Source: Escherichia coli
Lineage (GTDB): Bacteria; Pseudomonadota; Gammaproteobacteria; Enterobacterales; Enterobacteriaceae
Reading direction: 5' to 3' (one strand)
NCBI RefSeq assembly: GCF_013315695.1
Contig: NZ_CP054353.1
DNA: 64,000 bases
Shown: positions 57,317 to 57,702 of the stretch, one piece after another
How positions within the stretch are numbered: the stretch's first letter is position 1
Layout of the letters: each line of letters starts with the position of its first letter
Made by a program: the position numbers and the translations under genes
Notes under the pieces: model-generated
What the model saw: the letters and a program-made list of their open reading frames with translations, nothing else
Database searches by the model: none
What the model was told of the DNA's origin: nothing

Positions 57317-57332
57317 CATCATTGTTAATTAA

Positions 57333-57366
57333 TTCGACCAGTCAGCAAATATGCTGACTGGTCGAA
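57333..57366. repeat. Perfect 14-bp inverted repeat ttcgaccagtcagc-aaatat-gctgactggtcgaa
   Basis: Directly downstream of the elaD stop; no following T-run, so not a canonical intrinsic terminator. Confidence 0.6.
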
Positions 57367-57702
57367 CATAGTTTGCTAAAAAGTCATCACTGACTGATGT
57401 CAGTCACACCACCCGCCAGTTCAATCTGCGGGTATTTCCAGCGTATCGCGGCACGCGATTGCTGGTCTGTTGATGTAGTGGATTGTAGTTGCTGACTTTT
57501 CTTACCCTAAGATTTCTGCCCCCTGTCAATTCAATCTGCCAATAAATAACATAATTATTTTTTCCTCATATGAATTCCTTTTTAAAATAGCGAACCCACT
57601 GTAAAAAAACTTTTTGTATATCTCTGCCAACCGTAATAAAATAAACACTCATTACTCATTATAAATAATTATGAAATAACGCCTTTTATTGATAATTTAC
57701 AT

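Follow-up and report, generated by a model that had tools for sequence, protein, structure and literature searches.

A probable yfbK pseudogene stub and a likely ancestral empty site between elaD and nuoN in an Escherichia coli chromosome

Four genes that lie between elaD and nuoN in E. coli K-12 are missing from another E. coli chromosome, from two separate places. What happened at these two sites? We analyzed a stretch of 64,000 nucleotides (the window), which covers a chromosomal region and is 100% identical to the genome of AF3 (E. coli, NZ_OZ547117.1; blood culture, UK). The gene order in K-12 is rbn, elaD, yfbK (minus strand), yfbL, yfbM, yfbN (minus strand), yfbO, yfbP and nuoN (minus strand), and in the window it is rbn, elaD, yfbL, yfbM and nuoN. 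A sequence-only reading of the window had stated that in K-12 elaD and yfbL are separated by yfbK, and yfbM and nuoN by yfbN-yfbO-yfbP, and had noted that neither block is present here; the K-12 gene order and our alignments agree on both counts. That reading, which placed the features of both spacers correctly to within 1-2 bases, also proposed that a hairpin and two direct repeats in the elaD-yfbL spacer are recombination scars or target-site remnants that define these indels. Our analysis leads to another answer: the differences in the two spacers are an ordinary gene-content polymorphism, with a decayed gene stub in one and an ancestral empty site in the other. (In a literature search, we found no paper that connects yfbK or yfbL to a polymorphism of the elaD-yfbL junction.) The features of the locus are listed in Table 1, and our genome counts are based on 5,426 complete E. 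coli genomes.

Table 1. Genes, remnants and repeats from rbn to nuoN (positions are those of the window)
Feature	Positions	Strand	Comment
rbn	54979-55914	+	part of the gene order at the locus
Low-GC elaD insert	55918-57386	+	starts just past the rbn stop; right edge between 57386 and 57412
elaD coding sequence	56105-57316	+	inside the low-GC elaD insert; Pfam ElaD_SseL-like_N and Peptidase_C48
Hairpin	57333-57366	.	arms 57333-57347 and 57352-57366, 4-nt loop; 17 nt past the elaD stop
yfbK 3' remnant	57387-57426	-	stop codon (57387-57389), last 12 codons and 1 base
Direct-repeat copy 1	57409-57429	+	runs from the last part of the yfbK tail across the left breakpoint
Junction filler	57427-57446	.	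20 nt, TGCGGGTATTTCCAGCGTAT; unaligned in every yfbK-carrying genome
Hyper-divergent segment	57427-57760	.	filler, yfbK 5' stub, yfbK-yfbL intergenic and promoter region, yfbL signal-peptide codons
yfbK 5' remnant	57447-57569	-	123 nt; start codon (57569-57567), then about 41 codons broken by stops
Direct-repeat copy 2	57519-57539	+	within the yfbK 5' remnant; the right-hand breakpoint is about 70 nt to its left
yfbL	57703-58674	+	M28 metallopeptidase (Pfam); intact in the window, 323 amino acids
yfbM	58777-59280	+	DUF1877 (Pfam)
yfbM-nuoN spacer	59281-59346	.	66 nt: 15 nt, a run of eight A, nuo operon terminator
nuoN	59347-60804	-	part of the gene order at the locus

The 386-nt spacer between elaD and yfbL retains both ends of yfbK on the minus strand, in their original order and orientation, with the middle of the gene gone. 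In K-12, yfbK occupies positions 4405-6132 of our record L001 (minus strand), and it encodes a predicted vWA-domain lipoprotein (vWA and YfbK_C domains in Pfam). The sequence-only reading had suggested aligning the spacer to K-12, and a pairwise alignment placed breakpoints at window positions 57426 and 57447: homology is unbroken up to the first of these (L001 4444, 40 nt inside yfbK) and restarts at the second (L001 6001, 132 nt inside yfbK). The 3' remnant is identical to K-12 (L001 4405-4444) at 38 of 40 bases, and it translates to IELAGGVTDISQ followed by a stop codon, as compared to IELADGVTDISQ and a stop codon in K-12. The 5' remnant is more diverged, with about 74% aligned identity to L001 6001-6132. 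Between the start and stop codons of yfbK, on the minus strand, the spacer holds a 183-nt stub that is interrupted by three stop codons in frame. Its translation is MRKK*LCYLLAD*IDRGQKS*GKKSQQLQSTTSTDQQSRAAIRWKYPQIELAGGVTDISQ* (asterisks are stop codons), in which the N- and C-terminus of YfbK are recognizable; the part after the third stop begins with GKK. Both gene ends are thus kept, outgroups have an intact ortholog, and coding capacity has been lost, as in a pseudogene. Based on these alignments, the elaD-yfbL spacer is very probably a decayed yfbK stub, left by an old internal deletion that about half of sequenced E. coli share.

Was yfbK lost by strains like this one, or gained by K-12? 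An intact yfbK lies next to yfbL in E. albertii, in Escherichia sp. MOD1-EC7003, in E. coli UTI89 (phylogroup B2), and in E. coli O26:H11. Because several lineages have this arrangement, the presence of yfbK is the ancestral state, from which the window differs by a deletion. AF3, E200086, BL21(DE3), and O157:H7 share one junction, filler and all, with only point changes between them. (The filler itself is unchanged in E200086 and differs by one base in BL21 and O157.) Since every deletion haplotype that we examined has the same junction, the deletion of yfbK appears to have been a single event that arose once within E. coli.

The deletion is common. An unbroken match from elaD to yfbL is found in 2,578 of the 5,426 genomes. 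We also searched with a query that starts at the junction, and the identities of the 5,332 matching records are bimodal, with two classes. About 2,796 records match at 88% identity or more, and among the matches listed, all of these lack yfbK; the other 2,536 records match at 72.8-75.4% identity, and among the matches listed, all of these have yfbK. None of 60 sampled matches had an intermediate identity. So, yfbK is missing from about half of complete E. coli genomes, or roughly 2,800 of 5,426, where the count for each haplotype comes from identity bands and from subtraction between searches rather than from a table of individual genomes.

K-12 and BL21 have about 100% identity on the left side of the junction, which suggested that K-12 might have re-acquired yfbK. 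But O26:H11 has the same elaD-yfbK junction as K-12 with a yfbK that is 5% diverged, so either of the elaD-carrying haplotypes may be the recombinant.

As to how the gene was broken, the internal deletion is about 1.55 kb in size. An old illegitimate deletion would have taken this much out of the middle of yfbK and left behind the last 40 nt of the gene, 20 nt that cannot be placed, and the first 123 nt; the three stop codons would have been acquired by the stub afterwards. At the breakpoints that we examined, we found no long repeat, no IS element, and no target-site duplication. We therefore infer that the ends were joined with little or no homology, by end-joining or replication slippage. 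The placement of the filler is ambiguous: it aligns to one part of the 3' end of yfbK in one MAFFT run and to another part in a second run. Matches to yfbK-carrying genomes all begin at query base 21 (window position 57447), immediately after the filler. We found no genome with an intact yfbK of the window's divergent type, from which the sequence before the deletion, and with it any microhomology at the breakpoints, could be read. Overall, the locus resembles other deletion-remnant pseudogenes at accessory or decaying loci of E. coli and Shigella, in that the gene's ends are in order, stop codons interrupt them, relatives have an intact ortholog, and there is no mobile element at the junction. 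It differs from them in that the yfbK allele is unusually old and common and is welded to a diverged block of about 330 nt.

If this is a simple deletion, then what are the repeats? Two similar direct repeats are indeed present, as had been noticed: cgccagttcaatctgc at 57414-57429 and tgtcaattcaatctgcc at 57524-57540. In their best register (the copies in Table 1), 17 of 21 positions are identical at a distance of 110 nt. The reading of the repeats and the hairpin as traces (scars or target-site remnants) that a mobile or site-specific event left at yfbK, and likewise at yfbN-yfbO-yfbP, has in its favor that the first copy overlaps the left breakpoint, and that just 5 of 300 shuffled sequences (1.7%) reached 17 of 21, which is nominally unusual (the test is post hoc). 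But the two copies do not behave like the edges of an event. The first is mostly native sequence from the 3' end of yfbK, and its homolog in K-12 is CCATCCGCCAGTTCAATCAGG (L001 4427-4447). The second lies about 70 nt inside retained sequence, and the homologous stretch of K-12, CACATCCTGACAAAATCAAACTAC, does not match the motif. In K-12, the motif is found at the left site only (L001 4433-4447) and not at the right flank of yfbK, so the second copy has no counterpart at an indel boundary. The repeat also decays in sister haplotypes: in E200086, BL21, and O157, which share the window's junction, the copies match at 14-15 of 21 positions, which is the modal best value in shuffled sequence. For these two reasons we rejected a target-site duplication. 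As for the footprint of an insertion, the window has two copies of the motif and not one. Furthermore, in the K-12 annotation, the variable segments contain only yfbK and yfbN, yfbO, and yfbP, without a transposase, an integrase, or an IS. The 17/21 repeat thus appears to be a coincidence in the window's lineage, and with the behavior of the hairpin (below) added, it is extremely improbable that these features are the scars of such an event.

The hairpin is real and perfect, as had been reported, with a stem of 15 pairs instead of 14. When the 386-nt spacer was shuffled 300 times with its dinucleotides preserved, no perfect stem of more than 10 pairs arose, so the hairpin is far outside what chance would give; the predicted fold energy of the RNA is -26.9 kcal/mol. 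The hairpin is conserved in K-12, BL21, O157, and O26, and it is essentially unchanged in K-12 and O26:H11, which kept yfbK. It lies 60 nt to the left of the breakpoint and within the elaD insert. Because it belongs to that insert, and because it is equally present in strains that have yfbK, the hairpin is unrelated to the yfbK indel and does not define it. We found it in 3,846 of the 5,426 genomes, which we take to be the carriers of elaD, with a median of 1 copy and at most 2.

The position of the hairpin suggests a different role. It follows closely on the elaD stop codon and, where yfbK exists, it lies between convergent genes, which suggests that it probably forms the 3' stem-loop of the elaD transcript. 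Like rho-independent terminators between convergent genes, it is a strong and stable stem-loop that contains G+C and comes shortly after a stop codon. Unlike them, it has no run of T after the stem on either strand (the plus strand continues with CATAGTTTGCT and the minus strand with TTAATTAACAATG), and our scan for terminator and promoter consensus sequences did not call it, while the nuo terminator at 59304-59322 is canonical. (The scan did report a terminator-like match on the minus strand at 57389-57404, which we discounted, as it lies inside the last codons of yfbK.) Two other identities for the hairpin were considered and rejected. It is not a repeated element of the REP or BIME type: it occurs at one place per genome and matches no Rfam family. 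(A scan of 56800-59600 against Rfam in E-value mode gave only chance-level matches, all far below the gathering scores.) Nor does it look like an operator for LldR. The LldR box is AAnTGGTCnGACCAnTT (PMC10272880), and the GACCA...TGGTC half-sites of the hairpin are wrong in both order and spacing. A gSELEX screen did find an LldR binding peak between elaD and yfbL, and the peak was assigned to yfbK itself rather than to the hairpin (PMC10272880). If that peak lies within the deleted part of yfbK, then it would be missing from strains like the one that the window comes from.

The elaD insert is a separate polymorphism at the same locus. Its GC content is 35.6%, as compared to 50.7% for rbn, and it is absent from UTI89, MOD1-EC7003, SCPM-O-B-8794, and E. 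albertii, where the gap between rbn and yfbK is about 120-145 bp. The presence/absence polymorphism of elaD was reportedly the subject of a 2007 paper on the ElaD deubiquitinase (PMC1847702). According to a 2025 elaD paper, the presence of elaD is variable and the gene is missing from phylogroup B2 (PMC12575377); a term search of that paper gave no mention of yfbK, yfbL, rbn, or the flanking regions. What we see agrees with this polymorphism in that the locus is the same, elaD is absent from B2 strains such as UTI89, and the hairpin is part of the insert. It differs in that yfbK was deleted in an event of its own, at a site that lies across the hairpin from elaD.

We noticed two more features at the edges of the insert. 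The last nine or so codons of yfbK (57387-57412; K-12 L001 4405-4430) read ADGVTDISQ* in strains with elaD and AKDLDNSQN* in strains that lack it, such as UTI89. Because the tail of yfbK differs when elaD is present, the insert either replaced the tail or brought a diverged tail along from its donor. Also, a 9-nt inverted pair, TGAACTGGC (55878-55886) at the 3' end of rbn and GCCAGTTCA (57415-57423) at the 3' end of yfbK, lies just outside the insert, and it is probably there by chance.

To the right of the yfbK breakpoint, the window is far more diverged than its surroundings. Across the hyper-divergent segment, identity to K-12, UTI89, and MOD1-EC7003 is 65-74%, as compared to mostly 91-99% between the flanks and K-12. 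The change is abrupt: the last 150 nt before the junction are 97% identical to K-12, with just three mismatches from 57300 to 57426, and identity then falls to 70-74% over 57447-57780 and is back to 96-99% from about 57830 onward. The effect is visible in the protein as well, as YfbL from the window matches that of K-12 at 300 of 323 residues and at just 30 of the first 45. Among the matches listed, the segment is fully linked to the yfbK deletion. In the columns for the stub and the intergenic region, the identity of deletion haplotypes to K-12, UTI89, and MOD1-EC7003 is 65-69%, as compared to 72% between K-12 and E. albertii and 78% between K-12 and SCPM-O-B-8794, and a neighbor-joining tree places the deletion class and the yfbK class as deep sisters relative to E. 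albertii. As with introgressed or trans-species alleles, the divergence of the patch is far above that of its flanks and is comparable to the distance between species. The two haplotype classes are about equally frequent in E. coli, and in this region they are as diverged from each other as E. coli is from E. albertii.

One explanation for the segment would be that the deletion occurred inside E. coli in a K-12-like yfbK, and that the stub and the promoter, freed from constraint, then decayed at an accelerated rate. The stub is non-functional and carries stop codons, yfbL is often a pseudogene in the deletion haplotype, and no branch is longer than that of this haplotype when the stub and the intergenic region are compared (65-69% identity to K-12 against 72% for K-12 and E. 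albertii), all of which would fit. But the immediate neighbors on both sides are 95-99% identical to K-12, and the species is not old enough for neutral decay to have produced a divergence of 26-35%. In its signal-peptide codons, moreover, yfbL of the window is nearer to the allele of SCPM-O-B-8794 than to that of K-12, and MOD1-EC7003, which is a separate Escherichia lineage, has the K-12-type allele at 95%. We consider it quite unlikely that decay explains the segment. Since a block that is diverged by 26-35% sits beside flanks at 91-99% identity, decay within the age of the species would be insufficient, which points to an allele that is either very old or was imported from a distant Escherichia lineage, with flanks that would later have been eroded by recombination.

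Homology-facilitated illegitimate recombination and the introgression of divergent alleles between Escherichia lineages are known processes. Here, as expected for them, identity drops sharply at 57426/57427 and is high again inside yfbL, and the nearest match to the divergent patch is in another Escherichia lineage. Among the genomes that we scanned (one per species), no donor was found, and a transfer at this locus would have a direction and crossover points that we infer.

The closest allele to the segment that we found is in NZ_JAATUR010000019.1, which is titled E. coli SCPM-O-B-8794. This contig is just about 85-86% identical to K-12 over menF-rbn and yfbL-yfbM, which is like E. albertii at this locus, so it probably represents a different Escherichia species. 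Across the segment, its identity to the window is 75-82%, which is too low for a donor (we scanned one genome per species). SCPM-O-B-8794 has no elaD, and the middle of its yfbK is missing too, between breakpoints that are a few bases away from those in the window.

Did SCPM-O-B-8794 and E. coli lose yfbK independently, at a spot that is prone to deletions? SCPM-O-B-8794 retains about 141 nt of the 3' end of yfbK, its homology restarts about 12 nt further to the right (near K-12 position 6013, instead of 6001 in the window), and the two junctions are not identical, as independent events would predict. Against this, the right breakpoints are about 12 nt apart or less, although the gene is 1.7 kb long, and the left breakpoints are within about 5 nt under one of the two placements of the filler; a rough estimate puts the chance of such a coincidence at about 1.5% for a single endpoint. 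A comparison of the alignments by eye suggests that one ancestral junction at a CGCG microhomology, which would read GGTATTCAGAACCGCGGCA, could have given rise to both, through one more small deletion in each (7 nt and 13 nt). The adjacent segment of the window is also nearer to that of SCPM-O-B-8794 (75-82%) than to that of K-12 (65-74%). Two independent deletions are therefore possible but somewhat doubtful, and a shared origin seems more likely than coincidence.

A broader scenario can be built on a shared origin. The deletion allele, the diverged promoter, and the 5' end of yfbL might form a trans-species or introgressed haplotype that is shared with a lineage like SCPM-O-B-8794, with selection on YfbK (a predicted surface or periplasmic lipoprotein) and on the divergently transcribed YfbL holding its frequency near 50%, and the decay of yfbL without yfbK might mean that the two genes are a module. 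We offer this as speculation and think it unlikely as a whole.

Several variants bear on yfbL itself. In about 2,035 genomes (a count by subtraction), including BL21 and O157:H7, the central 326 bp of yfbL (57964-58289 in the window) are missing and the gene is annotated as frameshifted, and yfbL of E200086 has an internal stop. Every defect of yfbL that we saw was in a strain without yfbK. It seems that yfbL tends to decay once yfbK is gone, which hints that these two uncharacterized genes might work together. As a separate observation, 2014C-3338 (L036 3897-4065) has an independent deletion of about 1.4 kb, which joins elaD at about codon 36 (window position 56212) to position 57639 and takes out most of elaD, the hairpin, and the yfbK stub. 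In a collection with one genome per species, close relatives of YfbL occur in just three Escherichia records, and the next-best matches, at 49% identity or less, are from Opitutales, Nitrospirae, Thiothrix, Bacteroidota, and Acinetobacter. Such a scattered occurrence would fit a horizontal acquisition of yfbL by Escherichia.

At the second site, between yfbM and nuoN, the polarity is the reverse of what the scar reading implied. That yfbM is followed directly by a terminator and nuoN holds up: folding of the spacer shows the terminator of the nuo operon, with a 7-bp G+C stem (59304-59322), eight T on the minus strand (59296-59303), and a fold energy of -19.9 kcal/mol on that strand. (The consensus scan missed this canonical terminator, which is clear from folding.) The 66-nt spacer is found with only point differences in O157, E200086, 2014C-3338, S589, UTI89, and the divergent SCPM-O-B-8794, and the annotation of O26 has the same spacing between yfbM and nuoN. 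K-12 instead has 2,561 bp, with 39.8% GC, in place of about 18 nt of the spacer. This yfbN-yfbO-yfbP block is found in 1,015 of the 5,426 genomes (19%), and in 985 of these at 99% identity or more. Because the 66-nt site is conserved across B2 and the lineage of SCPM-O-B-8794 while the block is in a minority of genomes, K-12 is the derived state and the window holds no scar of an indel. The window would thus have the ancestral empty site, and yfbN-yfbO-yfbP would be a 2.56-kb low-GC insertion in K-12 and its relatives. In comparing K-12 to the empty sites, no repeats were evident at the boundaries of the block.

Two side observations concern this spacer. In BL21, an ISEcB1 lies in the loop of the nuo terminator (L003, about 8070-9515); this is a later insertion, and it is the only IS that we found. 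Just past the yfbM stop, the window has GATGGGGTCAG (59278-59291), of which about 10 nt look by eye like the right end of ISEcB1, ATGGGGTCAGTTC. The resemblance is probably a coincidence, as genomes without the IS have the same bases.

Taken together, the region from rbn to nuoN is a patchwork of independent gains and losses. For annotation, 57387-57569 is better described as a yfbK pseudogene stub than as plain intergenic DNA. K-12 is not the reference state at the elaD-nuoN locus: about half of E. coli genomes lack yfbK, and the yfbN-yfbO-yfbP block of K-12 is a minority insertion. There is no hint of a new mechanism, and the one mildly notable point is how old and how diverged the deletion haplotype is. 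This makes a modest point about the population genetics of the species: haplotypes that are as diverged as those of separate Escherichia species coexist within E. coli at about equal frequency.
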